A stretch of 64,000 nt of DNA from NCBI GenBank assembly GCA_041690135.1, contig JAWLHY010000001.1:32001-96000 (forward strand). The letters run 5' to 3'. The notes beneath the pieces are model-generated. The model saw nothing but the letters and a program-made list of their open reading frames with translations, was not told the DNA's origin and ran no database searches. Both the position numbers and the translations under genes were made by a program. This document shows positions 25,745-49,079 of the stretch, piece by piece. Source of the stretch: Armatimonadota bacterium (lineage in GTDB: Bacteria > Armatimonadota > SYMT01). Each line of letters begins with the position of its first letter. Position 1 is the stretch's first letter.

Positions 25745-25818
25745 GAACCGCGGAGTTGGGGAGCCAGGTTAACCCGCGAGCCTGCCCGTATGGGAACACA
25801 TGGAAGAACGCGGAAGGA
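25745..25818 (-). repeat. Long form of the dispersed ~70-bp repeat (copy 1)
   Basis: Reverse complement TTCCGCGTTCTTCCATGTGTTCCCATACGGGCAGGCTCGCGGG... matches 45999-46072 and 49017-49079. Confidence 0.8.
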
Positions 25819-28938: not shown

Positions 28939-31182
28939 ATGTCTTCCAGCCCCAACGAGGTTCTCGAGATCCGCTCCCCCGTCTCACTCGACGAGACGAT
29001 GAACATCCTGCGCCGCCGTAAGGGGGTGTTCCTCCAGGCGTTCATCGCGGTGGTGGCGGTCGGCATCCTGGTGACGGCTTCCACCAAGCCGGTCTATCGC
29101 ACCTGGGCGCGGCTCCTGGTGCCGGCGGGAAGCCGTTCCGTGAGCCTGGTCGACTCCGCCAACCCGATCGCCGCGATGGTGGCGGCGGCCCAGCCGGATA
29201 GCCTCGCCACGCAGCTACAGATCCTGCAAAGCCGCCCCTTTCTCGCCGATGCCCGAAAGGCGGCCGGTCTCGCGGACCGGCCCGACGTCGTCCCGGCGAC
29301 GGTCCGTATCGAAGCGCTCGAGGAATCGAGCGTCATCCAGATCACCGTGGAGGGGGGAGACCGCCAGGGCATCGCGGACCTGGCCAACGCCGTGGTGGAC
29401 CTCCATCTGGAGCGGACGGACCTCCTCGCCACCACGGGTCTCCAGGATACGCTCACGTTTGTCCGCAAGGAGAAGGAGAAGGCGCGGAAGGGATTGGTGG
29501 CGGCCGAGCAGCGCCTGGTCCAGTTCCGTAAGGAGCACCGGATCGTCCAACTGGCGGCAGAGCAGGAGGCCCAGGCCAAGGAGTATGTCGAGCTGGAAGC
29601 GCGGGTCCGGGAGTTGGAGAGCAACATCCTCACCACCCGTGCCCAGGTGCAGGAGCTGCGTACCCGGCTCTCGCGCATGCCCATCGACCTGGTCCAGGAA
29701 TCGACGAAGGAGAACCCCCGCGCAGCGCGCCTGCAGGAGCGACTGGATGAGCTGAGCGCGCAGCGGGAGGAGCTGCTGACCGACTTCAAGCCCACCAGCA
29801 GCCGCGTGCAGGCGCTCGACAGACAGATAGCGGCCCTCCGGCTACAGCGGGAAGGCGAGCCGGAGCAACTCACGGTACGGACGCATTCCCCCAATCCCGA
29901 GCGACCGCCGCTGCAGGCGGAGCTCGCCCGCCTGGAAGCTCAGCTCCGCGGCCACGAAGTCGCCTTCAACGCCGCACGCGCCCGGCTGCAGACGCGAAAG
30001 GCGCTGGTGGATAACCTGGGCCCCTGGGAGGTGGAGCAGACGCGTTTGGTCCGGGAGCGCGACCAGGCCCAAACGGCGGACACACAATTGGCGGAGCGAC
30101 TCCGGAACCTGGAGATCCAGGTCAACGCCCGCGTGCGCACCGCCCGCATCCTCGAGCGAGCCTTCGTTCCGGGAACCCCGGTGCTGCCCCGGAAGGCCGA
30201 CAACCTGGTTATCGCGGTGGCCGCCGCGCTCTGCTTCGGCATCGGTATGGCCTTCCTGGCGGAATACCTGGACGACCGGGTGAACACCCCCACCGATTTC
30301 GATCGCTTCTCTCACCTGCCGCCGCTCGCCACCGTTCCCCAGATCGGCAGCGGCGAGACCGCACTGCTCTCCGCGATGCCGGTCTACTCCCACGTGGCCG
30401 AAGCGTATCGCGCCCTTCGCTCGAGCATCATGTTCGCCGCGCTGGATCACCCGGTGCGGCGGCTCCTGGTGACGAGCGCCAACAAGAGCGAGGGGAAGAC
30501 GCTGACCTCGGTCAACCTCGCTACGGCCATGGCGCTCGACGGCAAGCGCGTAATCCTGGTCGATGCCGACCTCCGGCGACCCCACGTGCACGCCACCCTC
30601 GGACTGCCGGGAGCACCCGGCCTCTCGGAGGTTCTGGTCGGTGTTAAGACGGTAGATGAAGTGCTGCACCCCACCGGGACGGAGAACCTCCAGGCGATCT
30701 GCGGCGGCGCCATTCCGCCGAACCCGGCGGAGCTTCTCGGCTCGCCGGCTTTCGACCGGCTCATGACGGATCTGGAGGCACGCGCGGACGTCGTGGTCTT
30801 CGACAGCCCGCCCTGCGTGCCGGTGACCGACCCCCTGCTGCTCGCGGCCCGCATGGATGGCGTGGTGCTGGTCGTTCAGGTGGGCCAGACCCGCCGGGCC
30901 GCCATCCGTCATGTGGAAGAGCAACTGCGCCGCGCCCGCGCCCGCGTACTGGGGGTCGTCTTCAACCGCTTCGAGCAGCGAAAACACGGCTACTACCAGC
31001 ACTACGGCTACGGCTACTACGGAGATACCGCGCCTGCGAACGGCCAGAGAGTGAAGGTCCCCGGTCTGAACGCCCGGGGGGCTAACGGACATGCGAGCAA
31101 CGGGCACAGCCCGAACGGGAAGGAGCACTCCGAGGACCAACCGGTCCGGGGGCTTCCCGAGAGCACGGGGCGGGAGAACTGA
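28939..31182 (+). CDS. Polysaccharide co-polymerase / tyrosine autokinase (Wzc/GumC family)
   Basis: Two TMs flanking a coiled coil, AEAYRALRS, Walker A SANKSEGKT, VDADLRRP, FDSPP and C-terminal Tyr cluster GYYQHYGYGYYG. Confidence 0.93.
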   Translation: MSSSPNEVLEIRSPVSLDETMNILRRRKGVFLQAFIAVVAVGILVTASTKPVYRTWARLLVPAGSRSVSLVDSANPIAAMVAAAQPDSLATQLQILQSRPFLADARKAAGLADRPDVVPATVRIEALEESSVIQITVEGGDRQGIADLANAVVDLHLERTDLLATTGLQDTLTFVRKEKEKARKGLVAAEQRLVQFRKEHRIVQLAAEQEAQAKEYVELEARVRELESNILTTRAQVQELRTRLSRMPIDLVQESTKENPRAARLQERLDELSAQREELLTDFKPTSSRVQALDRQIAALRLQREGEPEQLTVRTHSPNPERPPLQAELARLEAQLRGHEVAFNAARARLQTRKALVDNLGPWEVEQTRLVRERDQAQTADTQLAERLRNLEIQVNARVRTARILERAFVPGTPVLPRKADNLVIAVAAALCFGIGMAFLAEYLDDRVNTPTDFDRFSHLPPLATVPQIGSGETALLSAMPVYSHVAEAYRALRSSIMFAALDHPVRRLLVTSANKSEGKTLTSVNLATAMALDGKRVILVDADLRRPHVHATLGLPGAPGLSEVLVGVKTVDEVLHPTGTENLQAICGGAIPPNPAELLGSPAFDRLMTDLEARADVVVFDSPPCVPVTDPLLLAARMDGVVLVVQVGQTRRAAIRHVEEQLRRARARVLGVVFNRFEQRKHGYYQHYGYGYYGDTAPANGQRVKVPGLNARGANGHASNGHSPNGKEHSEDQPVRGLPESTGREN

Positions 31183-31183
31183 G

Positions 31184-32443
31184 ATGAAGCGTGTGGGACA
31201 GCCCCTGCGACTCGGCGGCATTTCCTGGGTCCTGGCCGCCCTGGCCCTGCTGGCGACGATTGTTCCGGCCGCGGCGGCGGAAGGGGCACCCGCACAGGAG
31301 GCGCCCCCACCACCCGGCCGGACCACCGAGACCGCCGCCTACCGCTTACAGCCCGGTGATGAGGTGTCGATCGCGGTTCTCCCCCGGAAGGAGTTCGACT
31401 GCGCAGGCCTCATCCTGCCGGATGGGATGCTCTACCTGCCGAACATCGGCGGCTTGAAGGCGGCGGGAATGACGATTCCGGAGCTCGCCGGGGCCGTGCG
31501 GAAGGTGCTGGAGGAGGAACTGGTGGAGCCCCGCGTCACTGTGGCGCTGGCTCGCATGGCCCCGCCACCCGCCGAGAAGCCCGCTAGACCCGGCACCATC
31601 ACCCTGATCGGCGCCGTGCCGCGGACCGGACCGCTCCCCCTCGAAATGGGTCTCCGCGTCCGGCGGGCTCTCGACCTGGCGGGCGGCACGGACCCCGATG
31701 CCGACCTCACCCAGATCGTCATTCTGCACGCCGACCTCACCCGCACCCTGGTGGACCTCTCGACCGACGAGCGGGTCTCCAACCCGGCTCACAACCGCCT
31801 GTTGCAGGACGGCGACTCGATAGAGATCCGCCGGAAGCCGGTGGTGCGGAAAGAGGCCTCGCGCGTGCGGATCAGCGGAGAGGTGCAGACCCCCGGCCCG
31901 TACGATTTGCGGGACGGGATGACGCTGGAAGACCTCATCATCGCCGCGGGCAAGCTGCGACCCCTGGCGGACGTGGAGCGCGTCGAGTTGCATCGCCCCG
32001 GAAAACCGGTGACCTTTTTCAATCTGGAGGCGCTCCGCAAGCAGGGCCCTGCGGGCAAGGTCCTCCTCCAGTCCGGGGACGAGGTCTACGTCCACGAGCA
32101 GGCGAGCCGCATCGCCCTGATCGGCGCCGTGCAGAACCCGGGGCCCCGCGCCCTGAAACCGGGCCTCAAGCTCCGAGAGCTGATGGTCGGGGGCGCGGCG
32201 GACATTGTCTCCGCGGCCAACCCGGCGGTGGTCGACCTGGGCGCCGTCCAACTCCTGCGCGGTGGGAAACCCGCCCTGAAACTGAACCTGCGTGAGGTGC
32301 TGCGCAAGCCCGAGCACCGCGACAACATCGCGCTCGAGAGCGGCGACGTGCTGTTCTTCCCGCCGCGGAAGGGGCTGCGTCGCAACCCGCTGGATTACGT
32401 AGGCCAGCTCGGCTCGCTCGGTTTTCTCTTCGGGCTATTCTGA
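31184..32443 (+). CDS. Polysaccharide export protein (Wza/Poly_export plus SLBB repeats)
   Basis: Signal peptide, YRLQPGDEV...ILPDGMLYLPNIGGLKAAGMTIPEL and three SLBB-like repeats; starts 1 bp after the wzc stop. Confidence 0.88.
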   Translation: MKRVGQPLRLGGISWVLAALALLATIVPAAAAEGAPAQEAPPPPGRTTETAAYRLQPGDEVSIAVLPRKEFDCAGLILPDGMLYLPNIGGLKAAGMTIPELAGAVRKVLEEELVEPRVTVALARMAPPPAEKPARPGTITLIGAVPRTGPLPLEMGLRVRRALDLAGGTDPDADLTQIVILHADLTRTLVDLSTDERVSNPAHNRLLQDGDSIEIRRKPVVRKEASRVRISGEVQTPGPYDLRDGMTLEDLIIAAGKLRPLADVERVELHRPGKPVTFFNLEALRKQGPAGKVLLQSGDEVYVHEQASRIALIGAVQNPGPRALKPGLKLRELMVGGAADIVSAANPAVVDLGAVQLLRGGKPALKLNLREVLRKPEHRDNIALESGDVLFFPPRKGLRRNPLDYVGQLGSLGFLFGLF

Positions 32444-32456
32444 AAGATTGGGCCGC

Positions 32457-35400
32457 ATGAGTTCTCCCTCTCCGACGGGCCGGCGACACCCCGGCTGGGT
32501 GCTGCTGATCGCCGGTTTACTGGCCCTGTTCCTGGCCGGAGCGCCCGATGCCGCCGCGCCGGCCGCCGTGCGACTCCACCTGCGCTCCGTCGGCAGCTTC
32601 GATCCCCGGACCCAGACCTCACGGGTGCCGTCGGACCTCTCCGTGATGGGCGCCCAGCCCACGCGGGCGCCGGCTCGGCTCGGAGCGTCGCAACTCTGGA
32701 TCGTGCAGTTCGCGGGTCCCGTCCGGCCCAGTTGGCAGGAGCTGCTGCTCGACGCGGGGGCGGAGATCCTGCGATACCTGCCGGACTACGCTTACGTGGT
32801 GCGGGTCGCCGACCGTCGTCTTCCCCGCGTCCGCTCCCTCCCGCACGTCCGCACGGTCACGCCGTTCCGCCCCGCCTACGCCCTGAGCCCCCGGCTGGCG
32901 CGCCCCCGCCGCGGGCGCCTGGATGTCCGGATCGAGACCTTCCTGCCGGAGGACGTGCCCAACATCCTGACCTGGGTCCGCAAGCTTGGCGGGCGGGTGA
33001 AATCGGTGACCGCCACCGAGGTCGGCTCCATCTCGGCGGATATCTCCTGGGCCGGAGCCCGCGCCCTGACCCGCGTCTACGGCGTGGCATGGGTGGAGGA
33101 GGAGCTGCCCCTCCGCCCCTTCAACGACGTCGGCTCCGGCATCTGCTACGTGCCCGCCACCCGCACGGCCCTGGGCCTCTACGGCACCGGGCAGATCGTC
33201 GCGGTGTCCGACACCGGCCTGGACAATGGGGATGCCGCCAGCGTGGGGATCGGCGCCGCCGGTACGCTGCACCCGGATTTCCAGGGGCGCCTCCTGTCCG
33301 CCACCAGTGTGAACGACCGGGGCACCTGGGACGATCCCGATGGGGCGGGCCACGGAACGCATGTCGCGGGTTCTGTCCTCGGAAACGGCCTCAACTCCGG
33401 CTCCACGCCCGCCCTGCACGCCTACGCCGGCAGCTACGCGGGGGCCGCCCCCGAGGCGCTGCTGGTCTTCCAGTCCAACCTCCGCAACGACGGCAACCTC
33501 TTCAGCGATCAGTACCGGTCGAACCTGTACCGGCTGTTCCAGGAGGCCTACGACCAGGGCGCGCGCATCCACAGCGACAGTTGGGGCGCCAACGTCCAGG
33601 GGATGTACACTTCGGACTCGTATCTCGTGGACCGCTTCATGTGGGAGCGGCAGGACATGCTGTGCGTGTTCGCCGCGGGCAACGACGGTCGCGACACCGG
33701 AACCCCGGACGGCATCGTGGACCTCGACTCGATGGGGGCGCCCGCGACCGCCAAGAACTGCCTGACGGTGGGAGCGACGGAAACCGAGCGGAACATCTAC
33801 AGCACCACCTGGTCGCTCTTCGGCAACCCCTCGCGGTTCACCACCGCGCCGATCAGCACGGACCGCGTGGACACCAGTCGCTTCGGCATGGCCGCCTTCA
33901 GCTCCCGCGGCCCCTGCGACGACCCGGCCGGCGCCTTCGGCGAGCGGCGGATCAAGCCGGACCTCGTGGCGCCAGGCACGGGCATTGCGTCTACCCGGTC
34001 GCAACTGCTGGCGGGTCCATTATCGGAGAACCACTGGGGCCGACTATCCGGTGCAGGCCTGACGACCTCGGGTAGCCTGGAGGATAACTCCTACCACTTC
34101 AATGGCGGGACCAGCATGGCCACGCCGCTGGTCGCGGGAATGGCGGCCCTGACACGTCAGTATTACCAGGAGCGGGAGAACCACCCCAACCCGAGCGCGG
34201 CGCTGCTCAAGGCCACGCTCCTCGCCAGCGCCTTCGATCTCCACTCCCTTCCGGCACGCGGACAATACACCTCTGCCAAGCCCGAGCAGCCCTCCGCCCG
34301 GCCCAACGCCGTCCAGGGGTGGGGGAGAGCCGATCTCCGGAAGGCCCTGAACCCGGCGGCCCACGTCCAGGACTTCAGCGGCGTGGCGTATCCGAACACG
34401 CGCCTGCTGTTCAACGATGTCCGTCCGGGTCTGCGCACGGGAGAACTGGACCTGATCTCCTTCCGGGCGACCACCGGCACCCCCCTGAATATCGTGTTGG
34501 CGTACACGGATGCCCCCGCCACCACTTCCGCCTCCGTAACCCTCGTCAACAACCTGGACCTCCGCATCACGGGTCCGGGAGGCACCACCTGGAACGGCAA
34601 CGGGGTAGACGGAGACAGTCGCAATAACGTGGAGTCGATCGACCTGCCGTCGTCTCTCACCACCGGAACCTACACGATTGCAGTGCGCGGGACCAACGTG
34701 CCGGCCGGACCGCAGCCCTACGCCGTGGTGGTCTACGGCGCCCTGCCTTCCTTCAGCCAGACGCTGCGCACCTCTCCGGCCTCGACTTTCTGCCAGTACA
34801 AACGCTCGGTACAACTGACCGCCCTGTTCAATGGTCAGCCGACCACCGGGGTCGAGTGGAAGGTCCTGAGCGGCGGCGGCGCCGTAACCACGAGCGGCCT
34901 TTACACGGCGCCGCCTTCCGGCACGAGCGCGGTGGTCGAGGCGAAGTTCGGCGCATTGACCGCGTCTACCACCATCACCTTTGAGCCGACTTCGCCGATC
35001 CAACTACCGCCCATTGCGCGGATCGAGATCTTCCACGCTGTCCCCTCGGAGTTGGTCAACATGCGCGTGGGCACGGGCGCCAATCCGGATGATCCGGTTT
35101 GGGAGCACCCCCAGTACAGGACCGGGTTCGGCGACACACCGGGACTGTTGGTGGAAGAGTTCGACCTCGTCGGCGCGCCCTCGGGATCGCTGCCTCCGAA
35201 CACGTCCAACCCGTGGTGGGTGCGGATCGAAGACTTCGGCGTGCCTGGGGAGAACAGCGGGGAGCTGCGGGTCTTCTGGGTCCGCTACCAGGGCGTCCAG
35301 TATTCCGCCTCCACGTTGCCGGCCCCTGTGCCGCCGACTCTGGAAGAGTACACCACCACCATCTTCATCAACCCATCGAACAGCACGGCCGGGCCGACGA

Positions 35401-36374
35401 TCCTGGCCCGGGTGCTCCTCACGCACACCCAGCCGTCGCAGATCAACTCGATCACGGTGGGATGCGGGCCCAACCCCGCCAGTCCCCTGTGGGAGTCGCC
35501 GGCGCAGACCGGGTTGGGCGCGGGGGAGAAGCTCTTCCGGCTGGACGACGCCCCGGCGGAGGCGTTCCCTCCCTCCGCAAACTATCCGTGGTTCGTCAAG
35601 ATCAACGATAACATCGCCAACACCGCCACGGGCCAGGTGAGCGGGTTTACGATCACCTACAACCAGCAGGAGTACATCGCGGGCGACCTGCCCCGGATCA
35701 TTCCGTCCGTGGGCACCGTGATCGCCTGGATCGATCCGCGCCCGCCGACAGTGGCGCTTACGGCGCCGGCACCTGGGGCCTCGCTGACCAACATCTTCAC
35801 CCTCACGGCCGACGCCACGGACAACGATACCGTGAAGCGCGTGGAGTTCTACGTGGATGACCGCCTGCTGGCGACCGACGCAACCCCGCCGTTCGGTTAC
35901 GCCTGGGATACCATGCCGGAGACGAACGGACCGCACCGGATCAGCGTGCGCGCCTTCGATCCGAGCGGGAACACCTCCGAAAGCTACGTCATCGCTTCCA
36001 TCGCCAATGCGGCCCTACGACCCAGCGTGGAGATGACGGTCGGCGAGTGGAGCTTCAATACCTCTACCCGGGAGCTAACGGCCACCGCCACGTTCCGAAA
36101 TGCCGGGCCCGCACACAGCGACGCCTGGCACCTGACGCTGGAGCGGCTGACCCTTTTCGGCACCGGTCCGGGGTTCGCGGGCGAACGCACCCTTTACATG
36201 CAGCCGGTTTCCGGGACGCCAGTGCCGCGCAACCTGGGAACGCTTCCATCCGGTGGGACGACTTCCCTGCAGCTGAAGGTCACCGTCCCCCCCGATGTGT
36301 CCGCCATACCCCGCTGGACGAGCCGGGGCTATTACTTTAATCACGAGACAGGTGGTAATCGCTACTACCTGTAG
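32457..36374 (+). CDS. Secreted S8 subtilisin-like protease (Kp43-type) with P-domain-like repeats and a bacterial Ig domain
   Basis: SDTGLD (Asp), GHGTHVAG (His), FAAGN (oxyanion) and GGTSMATP (Ser); RIKPDLVAPG; Ig domain PPTVALTAP...VEFYVDD...RAFDPSGN. Confidence 0.92.
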   Translation: MSSPSPTGRRHPGWVLLIAGLLALFLAGAPDAAAPAAVRLHLRSVGSFDPRTQTSRVPSDLSVMGAQPTRAPARLGASQLWIVQFAGPVRPSWQELLLDAGAEILRYLPDYAYVVRVADRRLPRVRSLPHVRTVTPFRPAYALSPRLARPRRGRLDVRIETFLPEDVPNILTWVRKLGGRVKSVTATEVGSISADISWAGARALTRVYGVAWVEEELPLRPFNDVGSGICYVPATRTALGLYGTGQIVAVSDTGLDNGDAASVGIGAAGTLHPDFQGRLLSATSVNDRGTWDDPDGAGHGTHVAGSVLGNGLNSGSTPALHAYAGSYAGAAPEALLVFQSNLRNDGNLFSDQYRSNLYRLFQEAYDQGARIHSDSWGANVQGMYTSDSYLVDRFMWERQDMLCVFAAGNDGRDTGTPDGIVDLDSMGAPATAKNCLTVGATETERNIYSTTWSLFGNPSRFTTAPISTDRVDTSRFGMAAFSSRGPCDDPAGAFGERRIKPDLVAPGTGIASTRSQLLAGPLSENHWGRLSGAGLTTSGSLEDNSYHFNGGTSMATPLVAGMAALTRQYYQERENHPNPSAALLKATLLASAFDLHSLPARGQYTSAKPEQPSARPNAVQGWGRADLRKALNPAAHVQDFSGVAYPNTRLLFNDVRPGLRTGELDLISFRATTGTPLNIVLAYTDAPATTSASVTLVNNLDLRITGPGGTTWNGNGVDGDSRNNVESIDLPSSLTTGTYTIAVRGTNVPAGPQPYAVVVYGALPSFSQTLRTSPASTFCQYKRSVQLTALFNGQPTTGVEWKVLSGGGAVTTSGLYTAPPSGTSAVVEAKFGALTASTTITFEPTSPIQLPPIARIEIFHAVPSELVNMRVGTGANPDDPVWEHPQYRTGFGDTPGLLVEEFDLVGAPSGSLPPNTSNPWWVRIEDFGVPGENSGELRVFWVRYQGVQYSASTLPAPVPPTLEEYTTTIFINPSNSTAGPTILARVLLTHTQPSQINSITVGCGPNPASPLWESPAQTGLGAGEKLFRLDDAPAEAFPPSANYPWFVKINDNIANTATGQVSGFTITYNQQEYIAGDLPRIIPSVGTVIAWIDPRPPTVALTAPAPGASLTNIFTLTADATDNDTVKRVEFYVDDRLLATDATPPFGYAWDTMPETNGPHRISVRAFDPSGNTSESYVIASIANAALRPSVEMTVGEWSFNTSTRELTATATFRNAGPAHSDAWHLTLERLTLFGTGPGFAGERTLYMQPVSGTPVPRNLGTLPSGGTTSLQLKVTVPPDVSAIPRWTSRGYYFNHETGGNRYYL

Positions 36375-36495: not shown

Positions 36496-39400
36496 ATGCG
36501 AGCGAACTGGTCTCGAGGATTCACCACGCTGATACTTCTGGTAACGCTGGGGCTCGCCTGGTGCGGCGCGCCCGAGGCCGCGCCGGAGCGGATGCCGTTG
36601 TTCCTGCGGGCGACGGGCGCCTTCGATCCGGCCGGGACGCAGCCGCGGGTTCCGGCCGATCTGAGCCAGGCCGCCGTCCAGAGCTTCAGCGCACGCGCGA
36701 CTAACCGCGTAGCGCCACCCAAAGGGGTGGGCCACTGGATCGTACAGTTCCGCGGGCCGGTTCTCGAGCACTGGAAAGAGGCGGTCGGTGAGTCCGGGGG
36801 ACGCCTGCTCCAGTATCTGCCCCAGAATGCGTTCATCGTTCGCATTGCCAACCGCGAAGTTCCCAAGGTCCGGCGCCTGCCGTACGTCCGCGCGGTCACC
36901 CCGTTCCATCCGGCCTACGCCCTTAGCCCGGCACTGCCGCGCCCGAGCCGAAGCCGGCTTAAAGTGAACATCCGGACCTTCTCACCCGAGGACCTGTCGG
37001 TGGTCCAACTGGCAGCCCGGCGCATGGGAGGTCGCATCACCTCCGTCTCGGCTGCCGGCGACGGTATGCTGACGGCCGATATCACCTCGGCCGCCATCCG
37101 CGCCCTGGCGCGCACCTTCGGCATCGCCTGGATCGAGCCGCTTCCCGCGTACCGGGTTCATTCCAGCCGGGCCAACGGGACCACGCGGGTCGACACCGCC
37201 CGGCAGCAAGTCAGCCTTTACGGCACCAACCAGATCGTGGCGGTAGCCGATACCGGTCTCGACCAGGGCCCCGCGGACGCCGTGGGCCTGGGAGCATACT
37301 CCCAGCACCTCCACCCGGACTTCACCAGCCGCATCCTGCAGGTCCAGGATCTGAACCTGCGGGGCGGATCGGACGAAGTGGTCTGGAGCGACCCCAACGG
37401 GCACGGCACGCACGTAGCGGGCGTGCTCCTGGGGAGCGGACGGGTCAGTGGCGCCGAGCCGGCGATCCAGTTGTATAACTCCAAGCTTTCCGGAGTCGTG
37501 CCGGAGGCGAACCTGGTGCTTCAATCGATCCTGGATGAAGACGGAAACATCCTCGGCCATCCGGAAGTCCAGGACCTCTACTTCATGTTCCAGCGGGCCT
37601 ACGATGCGGGCGCCCGGGTCCACAACAACAGTTGGGGCGCCGAGAACCGGCTGCACCAGACGCAGTTGGGAATTGCTCCCCAGTACGCGGGGCAATACTT
37701 CCAGGCCTCGCAGGCCGTGGACCGGTTCACCTGGGACCACCCGGACATGGTCATCGTCTTCTCCGCCGGCAACGGTGCGGAGGATCGAGACGGCAACGGG
37801 ATCATGGATTACGGACACACGCGGAACTCCATCGAAATTCCCGCCACCGCCAAGAATTGCATTGCCGTGGGTGCCACGGAGAACAGTCGACCCGAAGTGG
37901 ACGTGAACTACGGGCAACTGATGCCGTTTGCCTCCCTTTTCACGCCGATCGTGGAGGACCGGGTCGCGAACTTCGTCCACGGAATGGCGGCCTTCAGCGC
38001 CCGCGGCTACTGCGCCGACCCCGTCGGCAATTCGGAAGTGGCCCGCATCAAGCCAGACATCGTCGCCCCTGGCACGTATGTCGCGGGGGCACGTACGAGC
38101 GTGGCGTTTTTCGACGAGAACTTCGAAGGCGCCCAGCCCGGCGGCCTTCCGCAGGGCTGGACCCGCAGCGGAATTGCGGCAGTGACCAACGTGGACGGGC
38201 ATCCTACGCCGGGGCAATCGGCAGGCTTTGGGAACCCGGTCAGCGGATACCCGGTACTGGAACGGAACGGCACCGAGACCTTGGGTCTACCACTCCACCC
38301 GGACCTGGACCAGGCCTCTTGCCTCTATGTCAGTTACTGGACCAAGTACAATCTCCGCTCGGGTGATCAGGTGAAACTGTCTTACGGCTCGACGATCCTG
38401 GAATCCTCGATCGTCGGAACCAGCGACGGGGCCTGGGTCTACCGCACCGACGTGATCCGGCCCCTCCAACCCTCCGTCGACCGTATCACCTTCAACCTGA
38501 TCGGCGGAAGCACGAGCCAGGGCACCTACTACTTCCTGATCGACGACGTCCAGGTTCGGCCGGGGATCGGTAACGTCCTGAGCAATGTCGACCCGGGCTC
38601 CCTCGGGACCGCCCTCAATGAGGCGTATCAGTTTGCCTCCGGCACCAGCGTGGCGGCAGCGCAGGTCTCGGGCGCGGCCGCCCAGGTCCGCCAGTGGTAT
38701 CAGGAAGTGATGAACCACGGCCAGCCCAGCGCCGCCCTGATCAAGGCGACTCTGCTGACCAACGCCGCCGACCTGTTCAACACCGCGGACCAGGGCCAGT
38801 ACCCCTCCCATCCGGAGCAGCCGAGCCCGCGGCCGAACCCGGTCCAGGGATGGGGAAGGTTGGACGTGGCCAACGCCGTGCTCCCGGGAGTAGACGACCC
38901 GGACCGGACGGTGCTCTTTGCCGACGTATCGCCGGGTCTCGGTACCACCGAGTTCGATCAGTACCGGATCACGGTGTCCGGCGGCAACCGATTGAGCGTT
39001 GGGCTGGTATGGACTGATCCCCCCGCATCCCAGGCTTCCGGGGTGACGCTGGTCAACAACCTGGATCTCCTGGTGGAGACCCTGGATGGCGCGAAGTACC
39101 GCGGCAACGGGGTTGGCGGGGCGGGCGACGATCGCAACAACGTGGAAACCGTCGATGTCTCTGAACCGGGAACCAGAACGTATCTGGTTACCGTCACGGG
39201 GACCAACGTTCCCCTCGGCAAACAACCTTACGCGCTGGTGATCGGCGGCCGCGTACGCTACGCGCCCGAGAGCGGACTCCGCATCTCGCCATCCAAGGCG
39301 CAGTGCCAGTTTGGACGCAGTTACCGGTTCTCGGCCTATTTCCAGGGCATCCCCACCACCGGCGTGGAGTGGAAAGTGGCCACGGATAAGGGCGGGTTCA

Positions 39401-40953
39401 TCGACGCGAACGGCGTCTACACCGCCCCCAATGCCGGAGGTCCCGTGGAGATCCAGGCAGCTTACACGCTGCCGGGGACTTCCACCACCTACACGGCGAG
39501 CGCGCAGGTCGAACTGGTCGGCTTCCCGCTGCCGGACACCACTCCCAGTGGACACGTGGTGGTGAGCTACCCGGGCGCGCAAAGCGACATCAGCGTCGTG
39601 GAATTCGGCCACGACAGCGGCACCCCGCCTCCGGGCCCACCCGCGGTCGCCGAATACCTGACCGATAACAAGCCCGGCGACCCCACGGTGCCGGGTACCG
39701 GGGGCATGTTCACGCGCACGTTCCCACTCCAGAACTTCCCGTCCGGGTCGCTCCCGCCGAAGCCGGGCGAGTACTGGTGGGTCCACGTGCGGAACACCGG
39801 CGCCGCGGACGCCGAGGTGCCCACCGCGTGGCTAGTTTACGAGGGGCGGAAGTACACCTCCGATAGCGCGGTCACCGTGCCCGCCGGCACCGACCGCTAC
39901 ATCTACATCAACCCGACCACCGAGCGGCCACTGCCCGAGGTGTACGCCTACGTGGAGATCTACCATCCAAGGCCGAGTGACCTGACGAAGATCATCGTGG
40001 GAACGCCGGAGAACGGAGAGCGCGGTGCCTGGACCTCCGCGGTCGAGACAGGAGCGTCCGCCACGTCGAACATGCTCACCCTCGGGTTCGACCTGACAGA
40101 TGCCCCGGAGGGCTCGCTCCCGCCGGACGCGGACAACTCCTGGTTCGTTCGGATCGAGGACAGTGTGAGCGGGGACGTGGGGGTGCTGCGGAAGTTCTAC
40201 ATCCGCTACAACGGGGCTTACTACCGGGCCCGTCACCTGCCGCAGGGCCTGCGCGACGGTTCGTCCGGAGGTCCGGGCGTGGGGATCGGCTGGATCGACT
40301 ACACCCCCCCGGCCGTACGGATCACGGAGCCTGCACACGCCAGCACCATTACCGGAGCGGTTACGCTCCGGGCCGAGGCGACCGATAACGCCTGGGTGGC
40401 CCGGGTGGAGTTCTCGGTGGACGACCGCCTGCTCGGGGTCGACACCGAAGCGCCCTATGAGCTTACCGGGGATACGTACTTCGAGACCAACACCTGGCAT
40501 CGCGTGGTGGCGCGCGCCTTCGACGCCTCGGGCAACTGGAACGAGCATTCGATCGACGTATACACCGGCAACGGCGGCACGCGACCCAACGTGGCGGTGA
40601 ACATGGGCAACTGGCACTTTGACCCCACCACGCGCGAGTTGACCGGCACGATCACCCTGCGCAACACCACAATCACCGGCACCCGGGCCTACAACACCAC
40701 GCTCCAGCGCGTAACGCTCTACGGAACGGGGCCATCGTTTACGGGAACGCGCAGGTTGTACATGCAGCCCGTGGTTCCGCCGCCGCTGCCGCTCCGCACG
40801 CCGGGGGCCAACCCGGGGGAGATCGCACCAGGAAACTTCGCGAGCTTCCAGCTCAAGGTAGTCGTGCCGCCGGAGATCACCGCCGTCCCGCGCTGGAGCG
40901 CCACCGGTTTCTATTCGGACGACCCGGTGGCGGGCAGCTACTATCATCTCTAA
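36496..40953 (+). CDS. Second, paralogous secreted S8 protease with an inserted domain
   Basis: ADTGLD, HGTHVAG, FSAGN and SGTSVAAAQVSG; same domain order and C-terminal domain as the upstream paralog. Start moved to ATG 36496. Confidence 0.9.
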   Translation: MRANWSRGFTTLILLVTLGLAWCGAPEAAPERMPLFLRATGAFDPAGTQPRVPADLSQAAVQSFSARATNRVAPPKGVGHWIVQFRGPVLEHWKEAVGESGGRLLQYLPQNAFIVRIANREVPKVRRLPYVRAVTPFHPAYALSPALPRPSRSRLKVNIRTFSPEDLSVVQLAARRMGGRITSVSAAGDGMLTADITSAAIRALARTFGIAWIEPLPAYRVHSSRANGTTRVDTARQQVSLYGTNQIVAVADTGLDQGPADAVGLGAYSQHLHPDFTSRILQVQDLNLRGGSDEVVWSDPNGHGTHVAGVLLGSGRVSGAEPAIQLYNSKLSGVVPEANLVLQSILDEDGNILGHPEVQDLYFMFQRAYDAGARVHNNSWGAENRLHQTQLGIAPQYAGQYFQASQAVDRFTWDHPDMVIVFSAGNGAEDRDGNGIMDYGHTRNSIEIPATAKNCIAVGATENSRPEVDVNYGQLMPFASLFTPIVEDRVANFVHGMAAFSARGYCADPVGNSEVARIKPDIVAPGTYVAGARTSVAFFDENFEGAQPGGLPQGWTRSGIAAVTNVDGHPTPGQSAGFGNPVSGYPVLERNGTETLGLPLHPDLDQASCLYVSYWTKYNLRSGDQVKLSYGSTILESSIVGTSDGAWVYRTDVIRPLQPSVDRITFNLIGGSTSQGTYYFLIDDVQVRPGIGNVLSNVDPGSLGTALNEAYQFASGTSVAAAQVSGAAAQVRQWYQEVMNHGQPSAALIKATLLTNAADLFNTADQGQYPSHPEQPSPRPNPVQGWGRLDVANAVLPGVDDPDRTVLFADVSPGLGTTEFDQYRITVSGGNRLSVGLVWTDPPASQASGVTLVNNLDLLVETLDGAKYRGNGVGGAGDDRNNVETVDVSEPGTRTYLVTVTGTNVPLGKQPYALVIGGRVRYAPESGLRISPSKAQCQFGRSYRFSAYFQGIPTTGVEWKVATDKGGFIDANGVYTAPNAGGPVEIQAAYTLPGTSTTYTASAQVELVGFPLPDTTPSGHVVVSYPGAQSDISVVEFGHDSGTPPPGPPAVAEYLTDNKPGDPTVPGTGGMFTRTFPLQNFPSGSLPPKPGEYWWVHVRNTGAADAEVPTAWLVYEGRKYTSDSAVTVPAGTDRYIYINPTTERPLPEVYAYVEIYHPRPSDLTKIIVGTPENGERGAWTSAVETGASATSNMLTLGFDLTDAPEGSLPPDADNSWFVRIEDSVSGDVGVLRKFYIRYNGAYYRARHLPQGLRDGSSGGPGVGIGWIDYTPPAVRITEPAHASTITGAVTLRAEATDNAWVARVEFSVDDRLLGVDTEAPYELTGDTYFETNTWHRVVARAFDASGNWNEHSIDVYTGNGGTRPNVAVNMGNWHFDPTTRELTGTITLRNTTITGTRAYNTTLQRVTLYGTGPSFTGTRRLYMQPVVPPPLPLRTPGANPGEIAPGNFASFQLKVVVPPEITAVPRWSATGFYSDDPVAGSYYHL

Positions 40954-41162: not shown

Positions 41163-41453
41163 ATGGCCACGGAAATCCACAAGACCGGAGAGGAGCATCC
41201 CGAGCGACCTGATATTCCCGGAGAGAACGCCGGCAGGTGCGGAGGCCGCGCTCCTTATCAGGCGCCGTGCCTGCGCCGGCTAGGAAACATCGCGGATGTG
41301 ACGAAGGGAACCGGCACCGGTCCCGGCGTGCTGGTGGGCGGGTTCGGAGCCGGCCAGGAGAAAGAACAGATCCGCATCTACGGGGACTACTCGACCGACC
41401 AGGTTGGCTCCATCCTCAACGGCCCTCCGGAGAATCCTCCGGAGGGGCGGTAA
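41163..41453 (+). CDS. RiPP precursor-like peptide with a lasso-type leader (96 aa)
   Basis: GAGGG RBS. Residues 32-49, YQAPCLRRLGNIADVTKG, match the lasso leader consensus YxxPxLxxxGxxxxxT-x/G. Lies directly upstream of the kinase and nucleotidyltransferase. Confidence 0.75.
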   Translation: MATEIHKTGEEHPERPDIPGENAGRCGGRAPYQAPCLRRLGNIADVTKGTGTGPGVLVGGFGAGQEKEQIRIYGDYSTDQVGSILNGPPENPPEGR

Positions 41454-41481
41454 CGGTAAGAGCGGGATGTGGGCCGCCGGA

Positions 41482-42450
41482 ATGGATGCGACGACCTTCT
41501 TTGACGAGCGGCGGTTCCATGGCCTGCGGGTGCGGATAGCCGCCGATTCCCCGGCGCTGCGGTCCGCCCTTCTCCGGGAGTTTCCCCACGAGGACCTGCC
41601 TCAACCGCAGGGTCCGGAACGCGGAATGGTGGAGATCCGGGCCGAAGCGGAAGGCGCGGGGGAAGCTTTCCCGGAGCCCCCGGCGCCGCTCCAACCCGGA
41701 GCCGTCGGGCTGGCCTATCGGGTGACCCGGGACCGCCTCTGGCTCGAGACACGCACCGGATCCCGGGGCTGCTTCGACCTCCAACTTCGAACCGCGAGGC
41801 TCCGGATGGTCTCCACCGCCGACGTGGAAGCGGACACCGCCGCCCTCCTGGGTGTGGGGCTGCCCTACCTTTACCGCGAGTTGGGCCTGTACCCGGTACA
41901 CGCGTCTGCCGTCCTGGCAAACCGCACCCCGGTGCTGCTCGCCGGTGTCAGCGGCTCGGGAAAGTCGACCACCGCCGCGCTGCTCGCCCGGAGTGGCTTC
42001 GGTTTCTTCGCCGACGACCTGGTGCTGCTGGAGCCGACCGGAGACACGCTCACGCTGCGCGGGGTTCCGCGCCCTCCGCGGCTCGACGCAGCCGCTCGTC
42101 GACGGCTGGAGAGTCTTGCAACCGGCCCTGCACCCGCCTCCGCCCGGAGCGAGCCGGAGACGTTCGCCGCCCGGCCCCCGGTCCTGCTGCTCTTCCCCCA
42201 GGTAGAACACATTCGCGACACCCGTCTGGAGCTCCTCACCGGTCCCGAGGCAGTCGGCGCGCTGATCCGCTGCTCGCTCCTGATGGGCGAGAAGGAGGCC
42301 ACTCAAAAGCATCTCTCGGCGCTGGCGGCCCTCGCCACGGAGGCTTCCGCGTACCGCCTGCGGTTGGGAGAAGGGGTAGAGGCCCTTCCGGGCCAATTAC
42401 GCAACCTCTTGGCTGCCGCGTCAGCTTCCGAAAGTGGGCGAGTGATCTAG
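41482..42450 (+). CDS. HPr kinase-related P-loop kinase (peptide-modifying type)
   Basis: YPVHASAV (His), Walker A GVSGSGKST and FFADDLVLL; alternative start at 41467. Confidence 0.82.
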   Translation: MDATTFFDERRFHGLRVRIAADSPALRSALLREFPHEDLPQPQGPERGMVEIRAEAEGAGEAFPEPPAPLQPGAVGLAYRVTRDRLWLETRTGSRGCFDLQLRTARLRMVSTADVEADTAALLGVGLPYLYRELGLYPVHASAVLANRTPVLLAGVSGSGKSTTAALLARSGFGFFADDLVLLEPTGDTLTLRGVPRPPRLDAAARRRLESLATGPAPASARSEPETFAARPPVLLLFPQVEHIRDTRLELLTGPEAVGALIRCSLLMGEKEATQKHLSALAALATEASAYRLRLGEGVEALPGQLRNLLAAASASESGRVI

Positions 42451-42453
42451 GAG

Positions 42454-43623
42454 ATGAGAGAGCGTTCGCTCGAAATCGAGCTCCTCGCGCTGACGGATGC
42501 ATTGGGGGGCGGTGAAACGAAGCATGCCGCGGTGTGTGACTTCAGCTTGGCGGAGTGGCAAGGGTGGTACCACCGCGTGGAAGAGCATGGCCTGGCGCCT
42601 GGACTGTACCGCTTGTTGGAGAGACCTCGATGGAGCGGCCTCCCCGCCGAACAGCGGGCCGAATGCCGGGCGCGCTACCTGGAGCAAACGGCTCGTACCC
42701 TGGGAGCCCGTCGGCAGTGCACAGAAATTCGCGAGTGCCTGGAGAACGCTTCCATTCCCGTCCTCCCACTCAAGGCACTGGCATTTTCCGGCACGCTTTA
42801 CGATGATCCCGGCTTGCGGCAATTCGGAGACCTGGACCTCCTGATTCCGGAAGAGGCTGCCGGGGAGGCCGAGGCCCGGCTGCATGCGCTTGGGTATCGC
42901 CCGCTGGCGGCCTTTACTTCCCGGGAAGAGGCGGCGCTCCACGCCCGGTTCGCGCACCTCTGCCCGCTCGCTCGCCCGGGAGGTCTACCGGTGGAGTTGC
43001 ACACGCACCTGCTGAAGGACCGCGGCGACGACCGGATGGCGGTACGGGACACCTGGGATCACGCCGGCATCGACGCCGCGGGAACCCGCCGGATGCGACC
43101 GGAGCACGAATTCGTGTATGCCGCCGCCCATTACGCGGGCCATCTGCACCTGGGCGGCGCACGGTTGAAGTGGGCGGCGGACCTGCTCCGGATGGCCCGG
43201 TATGAAGAAGCCCTCGATTGGGAGCCGGTACGGGGGACGGCGGAACGCTGGAGACTCACGCCGTACCTGGCCCCGGTGATGCATGCCCTGCGAGATCACT
43301 GGAACCTGCCGGTGGGGAAGTGGCCCTCGGCCGGCGGGGTGCTGGGATCGGAACAGCTCACCGCCAGCCCCCAACATTCGGCCTCGCGACTAGCCCCCTC
43401 AGCCCTGGCTCGCTTGCGGCAAGTACGAGAACTGCCGGGATGGGGCCGTCGCGCGCGCTATTTCTGGCACCTCGCCTTCCCCGAGGCCGAACATTTGCGC
43501 TTCCGTTACTCGCTGCCCGCGGGAGCGCCCGTAACGGGAGTGCGCCTGCTCCACCCCCTGCGCCAGGCGAGCCGGTTCGTCCGCGGTTGGGTGGGCTCCC
43601 ACAAGGAAGGGTCCGCCAGGTGA
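42454..43623 (+). CDS. Nucleotidyltransferase family protein (NTP_transf_5-like)
   Basis: VLPLKALAF...LYDDPGLRQFGDLDLLI, VELH and LKWAADL motifs; 3 bp after the kinase stop. Confidence 0.85.
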   Translation: MRERSLEIELLALTDALGGGETKHAAVCDFSLAEWQGWYHRVEEHGLAPGLYRLLERPRWSGLPAEQRAECRARYLEQTARTLGARRQCTEIRECLENASIPVLPLKALAFSGTLYDDPGLRQFGDLDLLIPEEAAGEAEARLHALGYRPLAAFTSREEAALHARFAHLCPLARPGGLPVELHTHLLKDRGDDRMAVRDTWDHAGIDAAGTRRMRPEHEFVYAAAHYAGHLHLGGARLKWAADLLRMARYEEALDWEPVRGTAERWRLTPYLAPVMHALRDHWNLPVGKWPSAGGVLGSEQLTASPQHSASRLAPSALARLRQVRELPGWGRRARYFWHLAFPEAEHLRFRYSLPAGAPVTGVRLLHPLRQASRFVRGWVGSHKEGSAR

Positions 43624-43714
43624 TCTCGACAACCGAACTTCATCAGGCTACTATTCATGGTAGCCGGCAACCGGCCGTTCCGAACCGGAGCGAGCCCTCG
43701 ACCGGGAGTTTCTT

Positions 43715-45526
43715 ATGACGGCAACGCTCCGGAATCTCCGCCCCCACCTGCCCCTGCTGATCGCCGCGCCAATCCTGCTGGCGCCGGTGCTTTTCGTACC
43801 GCAAGAGGGGCCATGGCAGGGGCTGCGCTGGTTCCTGGCGCAGGCGGTAGGGCTCGTCTTCCTCGTGTACCTGGCCGCCCGCGCGAGAGGTTCCGTCCAG
43901 GAAGCACGTTCTTTCTTCCTCACCGGGCCCAACCTGCCGATCCTGCTGCTGCTGGCCTGGGCGGGTGCTTCCTTTCTCACCTCCGCGCCCGCCGCGGGAC
44001 GGGGACGCGAGATGGCCCTGGTGGAACTCCTGCGCCTGGGTACGGGGGCGATCCTTTACTTCGCGGTCGCCTACGGAAACTCCCGGCGCAGCGCTTTGAA
44101 CGCCTGGACCCATCTGCTGTTGGGCTGCGCGGTCCTGGCCGCCCTGGCGGGGCTCGTCACCAGCACCCAGCAAGAAATCGGATGGGCGACCGGGGCGTAC
44201 GCCAACCCCCAACTCCTGGCGGGATTCCTCGTGCTGCTGCTTCCCTTCGCCGGGGTGTACGCCCTTCAGGGCCGGATGGACCTGCGCCGCCTCCTGGCGA
44301 CCGTCGCTCTCGTGTTCGTGGTGGGAGCGCTGCTGGTCACCCGGAACCGGAGCGCCTGGCTGGGATCCCTGACGGGGCTCATCCTCCTTGGCGGCCTCTG
44401 GCTGCGGTCCGTCTCCCTGGCCGAGCTGGCCCGCCAGCGGCACCGGTGGATGATGCCCCTCATCATCGCAGCCGTGGGAGGCGGGTTGTTCCTGACGTTT
44501 AAGCCAGATACCGGCACCCTGGTCGAAGCCCGCGCCGCCACGCTGCTCGCGCCGGGACAGGAACCGTCGTTCCAGTGGCGCCTGCGCATGTGGGCGGCCG
44601 GCTGGGACATGGTGACCGCCCGGCCGCTGACCGGCTGGGGCGTGGGCTCGTTCCCGCGATTGGTGGGGGACTTCCTGCCGGAGGCACCCGCGACGGTGCA
44701 GGTGGAAGAGGCCGGCCCTTCGCTGGCCAGCGTTCCCCACAACGAGTATGTCCAACTGGCCGCCGAGTTGGGCGTACCGGGCCTATTGCTTTATCTCGCC
44801 CTGTTCCTCGCCTTCTTCCGGCTGGGACTCCGGTTCACCCGCACCGCCGAGAGTGAGACGCGAAAGTGGCTCGCCATCGCCTGCATGGGAGCTGTGGCCG
44901 CGCAGAGCATCGATGCGCTGGGCAACCCAGCCTGGCGGTTTGGGGACGTGGCCCCCTTGTTCTGGCTGGTGCTCGGCCTCGGCGTGGCGGCTACCCGAGC
45001 CCAGCAGGCGGGAGAAGCGAGCCCCATCGCCGAGCCGGGCGAGACGACGGGGCTCGCACCCCGCACCCCCATCTGGCGCTGGAGCTGGCAGGCGGCCTCC
45101 CTGGTCTGCGCCGTCGGCCTGGGCGCCTCCGCGTTCGGCGCCACCGTCGGCGGCCAACCGGGCATCCTCCGCGGGTACTACGACCCACGCGCGACGCCCG
45201 ACCTGGTTCTCAGCCGCACCACCCTCAGCTTCGGAACCGTCCGGGTAACGGGGCGGCGACGCCCGCCCGTCGCCGTGAAGACGCTCCGGATCACGTCCGG
45301 TGGCGAGCGCGGCGGCCTGATCCTCGGCCACCTGACCCTGGCTCCCGGATCTCCCTTCGAGCTGATCGGCGGCAACGACTTCCGCCTGGTGAAGCCCCGC
45401 TCCCAGAACTTCCGGTTCCGCTTCCGTCCCACCCAGCCGGGCACCTACTCGGTTCCCGTGGTCGTGACGTGCAACGATCCGGAAACGCCGGAGGTGGTGG
45501 TGACCCTGGTGGGGACAGCGTTGTGA
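43715..45526 (+). CDS. O-antigen ligase / Wzy_C family membrane protein with a C-terminal Ig-like (ASH/choice-of-anchor D-like) domain
   Basis: More than 10 TMs; YANPQLLAG, TRNRSAWLG, RLRMW...RPLTGWGVGSF and HNEYVQLAAELGVPGL motifs; C-terminal LSFGTV...FRPTQPGTYS...NDPETPEVVVTLVG. Confidence 0.85.
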   Translation: MTATLRNLRPHLPLLIAAPILLAPVLFVPQEGPWQGLRWFLAQAVGLVFLVYLAARARGSVQEARSFFLTGPNLPILLLLAWAGASFLTSAPAAGRGREMALVELLRLGTGAILYFAVAYGNSRRSALNAWTHLLLGCAVLAALAGLVTSTQQEIGWATGAYANPQLLAGFLVLLLPFAGVYALQGRMDLRRLLATVALVFVVGALLVTRNRSAWLGSLTGLILLGGLWLRSVSLAELARQRHRWMMPLIIAAVGGGLFLTFKPDTGTLVEARAATLLAPGQEPSFQWRLRMWAAGWDMVTARPLTGWGVGSFPRLVGDFLPEAPATVQVEEAGPSLASVPHNEYVQLAAELGVPGLLLYLALFLAFFRLGLRFTRTAESETRKWLAIACMGAVAAQSIDALGNPAWRFGDVAPLFWLVLGLGVAATRAQQAGEASPIAEPGETTGLAPRTPIWRWSWQAASLVCAVGLGASAFGATVGGQPGILRGYYDPRATPDLVLSRTTLSFGTVRVTGRRRPPVAVKTLRITSGGERGGLILGHLTLAPGSPFELIGGNDFRLVKPRSQNFRFRFRPTQPGTYSVPVVVTCNDPETPEVVVTLVGTAL

Positions 45527-45539
45527 TGCGTGAAGCGTT

Positions 45540-45584
45540 AGGCTTACGTGCGAGGCGGCTGCGGGGGCAGGGGGTTCGCCTCGG
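45540..45584 (+). repeat. 45-bp palindromic repeat (copy A)
   Basis: AGGCTTACGTGCGAGGCGGCTGCGGGGGCAGGGGGTTCGCCTCGG, related to three copies at 47558-47750. Confidence 0.8.
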
Positions 45585-45795
45585 ACATGGGTGCGTAGTG
45601 CGTAAAGCGTGTTGCGTAAGAGACTTGCAGTAGCCGGGTTGCCGGCCACTGCACCGAACTCGAGCCCAGGTGTGGCGTTTGATGTGCGGGAGGTAGGGCA
45701 GGCTCGCCGTTGTGTCCCTCGCACCGAACCCGTACCCGTATTGCCGTGTGGGACCCGTGGTTAACGGCCTGTGCTCTGCCCTTGTACCCGCAGAT

Positions 45796-45998: not shown

Positions 45999-46072
45999 TT
46001 CTTCCGCGTGTTTCCGTGTGTTCCCATACGGGCAAGCTCGCGGGCCTATTCGGTTCCCCGATTCCGCCGTCC
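45999..46072 (+). repeat. Long form of the dispersed ~70-bp repeat (copy 2)
   Basis: TTCCGCGTGTTTCCGTGTGTTCCCATACGGGCAAGCTCGCGGGC...CGGTTCCCCG. Confidence 0.8.
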
Positions 46073-47531: not shown

Positions 47532-47557
47532 AGCGTGTTGCGTATTGCGTATCGAGT

Positions 47558-47750
47558 AAGCCGACGTGCGAGGCGGCTACGGGGGCGGAGGGCCTGCCTC
47601 GGTCGGGTGCGTGAGACGTGAAACGTGAAACGTGAGGCTTACGTGCGAGGCGGCTACAGGGGCAGGGATTTGGCCTCGGGCGTGGGGAGTATTGCGTAAT
47701 GCGTAAGGCTTACGTGCGAGGTAGGGGCGAGGGCGGAGGGTCTGCCTCGG
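47558..47750 (+). repeat. Three degenerate tandem copies of the 45-bp palindromic repeat with heptamer-rich spacers
   Basis: Copies at 47558-47602, 47635-47679 and 47706-47750, sharing ACGTGCGAGG...GCCTCGG; spacers contain CGTGAAA/TGCGTAA-like heptamers. Confidence 0.8.
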
Positions 47751-48192
47751 TCAGGTGGTGATGCGTGACGCGTGAGGTCCTCGATACGGCGGTCGCACCC
47801 GGAATGCATCCCGGTAACAGTCCAGGAGGGTTGGTGTCGCCGTCCCCAACCAGGATCATGCCGGCTAGCCCGGAATGCACCGTGGTAACCGCGCACTGGC
47901 GCGGGCGTGACGACCGCCTCGGCAGCCGTCACGCCAGGTGGGGCTCAGCTTGTATGAGGGAAATGCAAGGCGCGGCTCCTGGTGGACGGAATGGACCTTT
48001 GGCTCGCACCCATGTAGGGCAGGCTCTCCGATGCCTGCCTGGGCTTGTGTATGCACCCGTTTCGCCGGGTGGGACTCCGCGAGCGACCAGGGGATGTGAA
48101 CGCATACGCCGAAGGATCCGCAGGACGGCCTGCTGGCGATTGGGTGTGGATCAGAGTAAGGGCATAGCCCACGAAAAGCGATGGGAAGTTGG

Positions 48193-49016: not shown

Positions 49017-49079
49017 CTTTTCCGCGTGCTTCCGTGTGTTCCCATACGGGCAAGCTCGCGGGCACAAACGGTTCCCCGA
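49017..49079 (+). repeat. Long form of the dispersed repeat (copy 3), inverted relative to the short copy at 48717-48748
   Basis: TTCCGCGTGCTTCCGTGTGTTCCCATACGGGCAAGCTCGCGGGC...CGGTTCCCCG. Confidence 0.8.

Follow-up and report, generated by a model that had tools for sequence, protein, structure and literature searches.

Our study describes a compact three-gene unit from an Armatimonadota bacterium in which a lasso-type leader is joined to a long linear core and is encoded together with an HPrK-like peptide kinase and a nucleotidyltransferase-family protein. The locus was analyzed within a window of 64,000 nucleotides, the whole stretch of DNA under study, to which all coordinates refer. Most likely it specifies neither a lasso peptide nor an LPP in the published sense, yet it would work like an LPP. 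We propose that the kinase (poly)phosphorylates T50 or T52, that the transferase caps the phosphate with sugar and that an RRE and a peptidase encoded elsewhere free the core, so that the product would be a linear phospho(glyco)peptide RiPP; we consider this reading rather probable. By analogy, and with similar confidence, we expect that the peptide would work in the manner of LPP and of the Bsf/pseudomycoidin tailoring arm, without closure of a ring. The features of the locus are as follows.

28939..31182, forward strand: Wzc-type polysaccharide co-polymerase/tyrosine autokinase (TIGR01007, 168 bits, above cut-off)
31091..32443, forward strand: Wza-type polysaccharide export protein (profile matches to Poly_export and SLBB)
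32448..36374, forward strand: S8 subtilase A, with an N-terminal hydrophobic segment and an Ig domain (PF00082, E 1.8e-45)
36496..40953, forward strand: S8 subtilase B, a paralog of A, 40-46% identical (PF00082, E 5e-36)
41163..41453, forward strand: precursor peptide gene, 96 aa, with a variable N-terminal extension (residues 1-28), a lasso-type leader and a 48-aa linear core
41256..41306, forward strand: leader motif Y32 to K48, the predicted RRE-binding part (NF033521 match over residues 32-50)
41307..41327, forward strand: core head GTGTGPG, in which T50 (core T2) and T52 (core T4) are the probable phospho-acceptors, from conservation and the LppA Ser3 register
41367..41420, forward strand: second core motif IYGDYSxxQ[VI]GxILNG, residues 69-86, from conservation in kinase-paired homologs
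41467..42450, forward strand: HPrK-like peptide kinase (PEPCK/HPrK fold), 13 bp 3' of the precursor stop
42454..43623, forward strand: NTP_transf_5 nucleotidyltransferase-family protein, PsmN/LppN-like, with DxD at D126/D128 (PF14907, E 1.6e-42)
43715..45526, forward strand: O-antigen ligase (Wzy_C) membrane protein (PF04932, E 5.8e-22; Atlas 0.94)

The genes follow one another on one strand in the order Wzc-Wza-S8-S8-precursor-kinase-transferase-ligase. The transferase gene begins 3 bp after the kinase gene, and this gap and the 13 bp between precursor and kinase, set against the 209 bp that separate the end of S8 subtilase B from the precursor, define precursor, kinase and transferase as a tight unit. 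The ligase gene starts 91 bp after the transferase, with a promoter-like site between them at 43626-43654 (3 sites found, 1.2 expected); as the ligase may thus have its own promoter, it can be counted as part of the system only tentatively. Its C-terminus shows a weak choice-of-anchor D/Ig match (NF012200, E 0.003, below cut-off). S8 subtilase A may be linked to the peptide as a candidate extracellular processing enzyme. An intergenic repeat of ~69 nt occurs in four copies (45523-45591 and 47541-47757), and a second family of ~60 nt in three (25758-25815, 46002-46061 and 49020-49079); one copy among the two families is inverted, and the window contains no Rfam match. On the reverse strand at 51239-57352 lies a gene for a 2037-aa protein with a signal-like N-terminal segment and long helical stretches, otherwise unannotated save for a single weak Secretin_N match (E 2.6e-4). 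The Wza-type and secretin-N proteins suggest a diderm host.

The precursor frame runs from an ATG at 41163 to a TAA ending at 41453, directly preceded by a Shine-Dalgarno-like GAGGGA stretch, and its codon log-odds of 0.143 is the best among the six frames (28 main window genes, 0.03-0.45). Full-length homologs are 66% (E 4e-31) and 65% identical to it, and as far as sequence can show this is a real, conserved gene. A sequence-only reading of this DNA had called for a homolog search, which found the precursor conserved and recovered 22 other leader-bearing peptides. There is no second precursor in the window, the next best match having an E-value of 0.88, and the precursor carries no signal segment. 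Its AlphaFold model is of low confidence (pLDDT 58, pTM 0.18); an Atlas search returned unnamed clusters only (0.82-0.83) and a PDB sequence search the leader of the MS-271 precursor (E 0.63).

The leader displays the residues that define lasso leaders, [YW]xxPxL and Thr(-2), as Y32, P35, L37 and T47, with G41 as a further residue of the motif. A six-frame search of the window finds the pattern [YWF]xxPx[LIV]xxxGx[LIVM]xxxT a single time, where 200 shuffles give an expectation of 0.095. Against the NCBIfam lasso-leader family NF033521 the precursor scores 16.8 bits (E 0.005), slightly below the cut-off of 19; the homologs P0002, P0019, P0020 and P0021 exceed that cut-off, P0025 falls below it at 18.0 and P0003 gives no match. 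Eight homologs share 10-16 of 20 leader residues with the window precursor, and T47 is kept in all nine close family members. Cleavage is expected after T47 or K48; numbering by the lasso convention, with Thr at -2, gives the 48-aa core, and both the leader end and the core length of the sequence-only reading hold on re-reading of the frame. The family label 'lasso RiPP family leader peptide' need not mean a lasso product, as this locus shows.

The close family comprises nine sequences including that of the window, chosen by eye as those whose head is of the G[TS][GI][PD] type and whose core measures 33-48 aa; the 14 leader-bearing peptides outside it share mainly the leader. Positions 7-9 of the window core are G-V-L, its first acidic residue is E18 and its last residue is Arg, all as first read, and judged by these residues it cannot form a canonical lasso ring. 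The earlier claim to this effect extends to its relatives: Asp or Glu at core positions 7-9 is absent from eight of the nine close members and present in 8/14 of the peptides outside the family. The sole exception, P0003 (D7), has also lost most of the C-terminal core motif (8/18 identical) and may be damaged. This second motif is the better conserved part of the distal core in the homologs paired with kinases, with identities to the window of 17/18 (P0002), 13/18 (P0019) and 12/18 (P0026) against 7/13, 5/13 and 4/13 in the linker; it is partly retained in P0020 (9/18), as in P0003, and largely gone in P0021 and P0025, P0028 having been left out of the motif alignment. A low-confidence model weakly predicts a short helix at precursor residues 78-86. 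We suggest a probable docking role for the IYGDYS...ILNG motif, toward either an enzyme or a partner of the product. The kinase-paired homologs end in Arg or Lys.

The proximal end of the core holds the likely sites of modification. In the three kinase-paired homologs the GTGTGPG head is identical at 7/7 positions, and across the close family position 52 is Ser or Thr in 9/9, position 51 Gly in 9/9 and position 50 Thr in 7/9; in P0025 and P0028 Glu replaces T50 beside a retained Ser at 52. The hydroxyl residues first listed as candidate acceptors (T2, T4, Y25, Y28, S29, T30 and S35) are all present in the core. The accompanying premise, that kinases of this kind act on a C-terminal Ser, is sound for the paeninodin and pseudomycoidin types and fails for BsfK and LppK, which phosphorylate core Ser3; their preference narrows the seven candidates to T2 and T4. 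The LppA leader spacing of Y-16, P-13, V-11 and T-1 equals that of Y32, P35, L37 and T47 here, which places T50 at +3. On sequence grounds, T50 is favored by register and T52 by conservation.

The kinase retains an intact motif, H145-G160-G163-G165-K166-S167-D183-D184, whose spacing equals that of BsfK (H148-G163-G166-G168-K169-S170-D186-D187) at a constant offset. Its AlphaFold model (pLDDT 85.5) aligns with PEPCK over residues 6 to 321 (Z 14.6, rmsd 4.1, 259 aligned), in agreement with Foldseek, and through its C-terminal domain with HPrK (Z 10.9, rmsd 3.9, 137 aligned). In the whole-model comparison the N-terminal domain is matched by the N-terminal lobe of PEPCK, and no RRE structure appears among the best 50 structural matches of the whole model. 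Scores of the RRE profile are negative across the kinase clade of the window, which makes a built-in RRE unlikely. The kinase N-terminal domain, which the sequence-only reading had named for co-folding with the leader, thus seems unlike an RRE. The P-loop region matches TIGR04355 (42 bits) and TIGR04352 (37 bits) weakly, far under cut-offs of 200 bits, and membership of the NCBIfam HprK-related kinase A/B or SynChlorMet ScmC families was rejected on these scores.

In a kinase tree built without BsfK and LppK, the window kinase and its three closest homologs form a supported clade (100/99), with the paeninodin-like L030 kinase outside it on a long branch; L030 was considered as an LPP and rejected, its locus being a paeninodin-like cluster. 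The precursors P0002, P0019 and P0026 and the three closest kinase homologs have equal longest-contig sizes (12915, 6483 and 3721), and from this equality of size alone we take it that each precursor and kinase probably share one contig and that their pairing is conserved. The pairing in the tree mirrors that of the precursor sequences, which shared descent alone could explain. These kinases are 46-62% identical, yet the core head and C-terminal motif of their precursors are retained.

The DxD of the transferase is kept in the alignment; a PDB sequence search with this protein gave nothing useful. The further parts expected of a RiPP cluster were sought throughout the window. A Pfam scan of 47 window ORFs, based in part on the best five families per protein, shows no PqqD, asparagine synthase, B2, S24/S26 or ABC family, and hence no SipW-like signal peptidase I (S24/S26) among these ORFs. 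Two cyclases and three B2 proteins from lasso loci of known type, searched with phmmer against the six frames, give no match at E<=1, under conditions where kinase and transferase queries from the same locus do find their window counterparts. The sequence-only reading had named orthologs with D/E at positions 7-9 and a cyclase nearby as evidence against itself; neither method found a cyclase in the 64 kb. An ABC query that finds 8 segments in other loci matches nothing in the window at E<=1, and an RRE profile built from 7 RREs, which picks up 6 RREs from other loci that were not used to train it, reaches a best E of only 4.3 in the six frames of the window.

Cassettes of kinase and transferase without a visible cyclase are common, which makes the window less surprising. 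A GTDB scan with a 15-kinase alignment found at least 29 distant kinase loci, many of which end at contig edges. Among the 29 listed, 13 have an RRE (7 of these in the RRE training set) and 15 (8 in the training set) encode an NTP_transf_5 protein; none has a cyclase or a close relative of the precursor, and B2 is represented by one fragment at the edge of a locus. The window differs from many of these loci with kinase and transferase in having no RRE in cis. In four Pyrinomonadaceae loci and one Entotheonella locus a short leader-like ORF with 12-13 residues past the Thr lies directly 5' of the kinase. The Pyrinomonadaceae ORFs (L001:9373-9546, L002:8906-9088, L003:4506-4682 and L005:1558-1740, all on the forward strand) read FxEPx[IL]SxPVDVLExT followed by TFFQ, with the NTP transferase upstream; L001 and L002 also encode an RRE and lamin-tail-domain proteins downstream. 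They apparently represent another cyclase-free leader family, L001 being the locus with the B2 fragment at its edge. In Entotheonella (L017:2312-6263) an S8 protease, a short leader peptide and a kinase stand in the same order as in the window, and the contig stops inside the kinase gene. A Desulfobacteraceae ORF upstream of an NTP transferase, an RRE and a kinase (L006:7525-8073) has a twin-arginine-like start and WxxPxV...LPAHAQ, and may encode a secreted protein that bears a leader-like motif. P0023 is a 199-aa protein with four tandem lasso-leader repeats. Plasmid searches returned distant lasso-type loci only.

Comparison with characterized systems places the window closest to LPP. LPP clusters (2026, PMC13381572) encode an SpI peptidase, an RRE, a kinase of the HprK-like type, an NTP transferase and a pump that is MsbA-like, are mostly from Bacillota and often lie in capsule loci. 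With them the window shares the lack of a cyclase, a YxxP leader with equal Y-to-T spacing, a long variable core, the HprK-like kinase with an NTP transferase, the polysaccharide-locus context and a hydroxyl residue at +3 past the leader Thr. Of the LPP leader consensus YxxPxVLxHQxIxFETxxS the window matches Y, P and T; its middle is LRRLGNIADV, so that LxxxGxxxxxT stands in place of VLxHQxIxFET, and its +3 residue is Thr. LppA cleavage follows T-1, and LppK polyphosphorylates core Ser3 and rejects S3T and S3Y (PMC13381572), whereas the acceptor in the window would be Thr. The SipW-like peptidase, RRE and MsbA-like pump of LPP were not found in cis in the window, which has instead a second conserved core motif, adjoining S8 proteases and an O-antigen ligase, and the Wza-type and secretin-N proteins that point to a diderm host, LPP being mostly from Bacillota.

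The Bsf lasso cluster of Bradymonas sediminis shares the H-G-G-G-K-S-D-D kinase spacing and the presence of a nucleotidyltransferase. BsfK phosphorylates core Ser3, accepts Thr there and is weakly active without an RRE (PMC10368454), and we count this action near the core N-terminus as a likeness to the window kinase; in its own core Thr2 was never modified, and Ser3 of BsfA maps to G51, between the two Thr. Bsf differs in its B1, B2, cyclase, ABC transporter and 21-aa core. Paeninodin and pseudomycoidin (PMC6993621) share an HprK-family kinase and a PF14907-type transferase with DxD, and supply the precedent for hexose on phosphate: attachment of one or two hexoses to phosphoserine depends on PsmN and on its DxD. 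They are cyclized and modified on the C-terminal Ser, in contrast to a ringless core that ends in Arg, and paeninodin-type leaders read WxxP where that of the window reads YxxP. The sequence-only reading had proposed a different RiPP class that reuses the leader; a non-lasso class is indeed the best reading, but a cyclase-free class with this enzyme pair, LPP, has already been published. New here are a long linear core that carries a canonical lasso leader, a Thr head and a second core motif and, relative to LPP, the missing RRE, peptidase and pump in cis and the S8 and ligase neighbors. We found no description of this locus type in a literature search whose coverage leaves out most subscription journals.

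These observations suggest a model for the locus. The 96-aa precursor would be made together with the kinase and the transferase from the tight unit, and its YxxPxL leader would be held by an RRE encoded outside the 64 kb, or else the kinase would act slowly without one, like BsfK. The kinase, whose fold and motif are evident, would (poly)phosphorylate T50 or T52 in the GTGTGP head, and by analogy with PsmN the NTP_transf_5 protein would cap the phosphate with sugar. In the weakest step of the model, removal of the leader near T47/K48 may fall to a peptidase from elsewhere in the genome or to a neighboring S8 protease, and the product may act with surface polysaccharide. The chemistry, cleavage, export and polysaccharide link are all put forward as what we infer from the gaps of 13 and 3 bp in the unit, the kinase fold with its BsfK-like motif offset, the LppA-like leader spacing with T50 at +3, the scarcity of Asp or Glu at positions 7-9 (8/9 without), the hydroxyl residue at position 52 in 9/9, the probable precursor-kinase pairing and, from the literature, the tolerance of BsfK for Thr and its weak activity without an RRE, the hexose role of PsmN and the frequent placing of LPP clusters in capsule loci. 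Against the model stand the lack of an RRE, leader peptidase and peptide exporter in the window, a precursor without a signal segment, Glu at position 50 in 2/9 family members and ortholog linkage read from equal contig sizes alone. The LPP and Bsf reports add the inactivity of LppK on S3T, the BsfK register on G51 with its own Thr2 never modified, and an lppN deletion that had no visible effect in a heterologous host (PMC13381572).

The absence of peptidase, RRE and exporter in cis, and of a signal segment in the precursor, would also fit a peptide that is neither cleaved nor exported but stays in the cytoplasm, where it accepts phosphate or carries sugar phosphate and regulates or feeds Wzc/Wza, its leader being a docking handle only. 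The tripeptide YGD is found both in the core motif (41373-41393) and in the tyrosine-rich tail of Wzc (3' part of 28939-31182), just twice in the 16,210 aa of the main window proteins; this may be chance, and three letters shared with a tail rich in Tyr and Gly carry little weight. We regard such a carrier as unlikely, given that T47, the residue read by leader peptidases, is kept in 9/9 close members and that the characterized relatives LppA and BsfA are cleaved (PMC13381572, PMC10368454).

The unbroken same-strand order from Wzc to the ligase raises another prospect, to which we give a slimmer chance: the phospho-sugar peptide may be a primer or anchor for surface glycan, exported and then joined by the O-antigen ligase to undecaprenyl-linked glycan, with an S8 protease trimming the leader. 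Here the kinase would phosphorylate the GTGTGP Thr without an RRE, docking through IYGDYS...ILNG, and the transferase would add the first sugar, a scheme that we hold to be just as doubtful. The S8-precursor-kinase order in distant Entotheonella is consistent with such a role, as are the co-induction of LPP and eps genes and the proposal that LppN needs a partner outside the core cluster, both from PMC13381572. However, there is no evident route by which the peptide would reach the periplasm, the ligase is preceded by a promoter-like site of its own, and ligase and S8 are both scarce elsewhere: among 126 LPP neighborhoods Wzy_C occurs in 6 and S8 in 3 (PMC13381572), and among the 29 distant kinase loci listed phmmer gives one match to the ligase and none to S8 subtilase A. 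If true, this reading would make the product a RiPP-polysaccharide conjugate, and would explain both the placing of LPP and paeninodin clusters in capsule loci and the escape of their native products from mass spectrometry.

That the locus makes a lasso peptide after all, through a cyclase encoded elsewhere, is very improbable. The leader is of canonical lasso type and P0003 has Asp at position 7, but no cyclase was found in the window and P0003, as noted above, may be damaged. Were cleavage shifted, say to core G11/G12, E18/E20 would come to positions 7-9; this variant was rejected, since the linker acids are not conserved: P0026 has its first acid at core 30, P0020 at core 29. Least likely of all is that the locus is what remains of a decaying lasso cluster and now serves no function, for the missing partners in cis, the leader score below the curated cut-off and a Cys in the leader where most homologs have Arg are outweighed by intact kinase and transferase motifs and by a core head and C-terminal motif kept across orthologs whose kinases have diverged so far.

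The linear phospho(glyco)peptide that we favor bears on a family whose members, LPPs and paeninodin-type peptides, have no known final structure or role, as PMC13381572 states. In this locus the cyclase-free design of kinase and transferase reaches a separate kinase clade and is combined with a canonical lasso leader, a probable Thr acceptor and a core motif of its own that is conserved. The compact three-gene unit, the prediction of two residues as the site of modification and the adjoining ligase make the link between peptide and polysaccharide directly testable.
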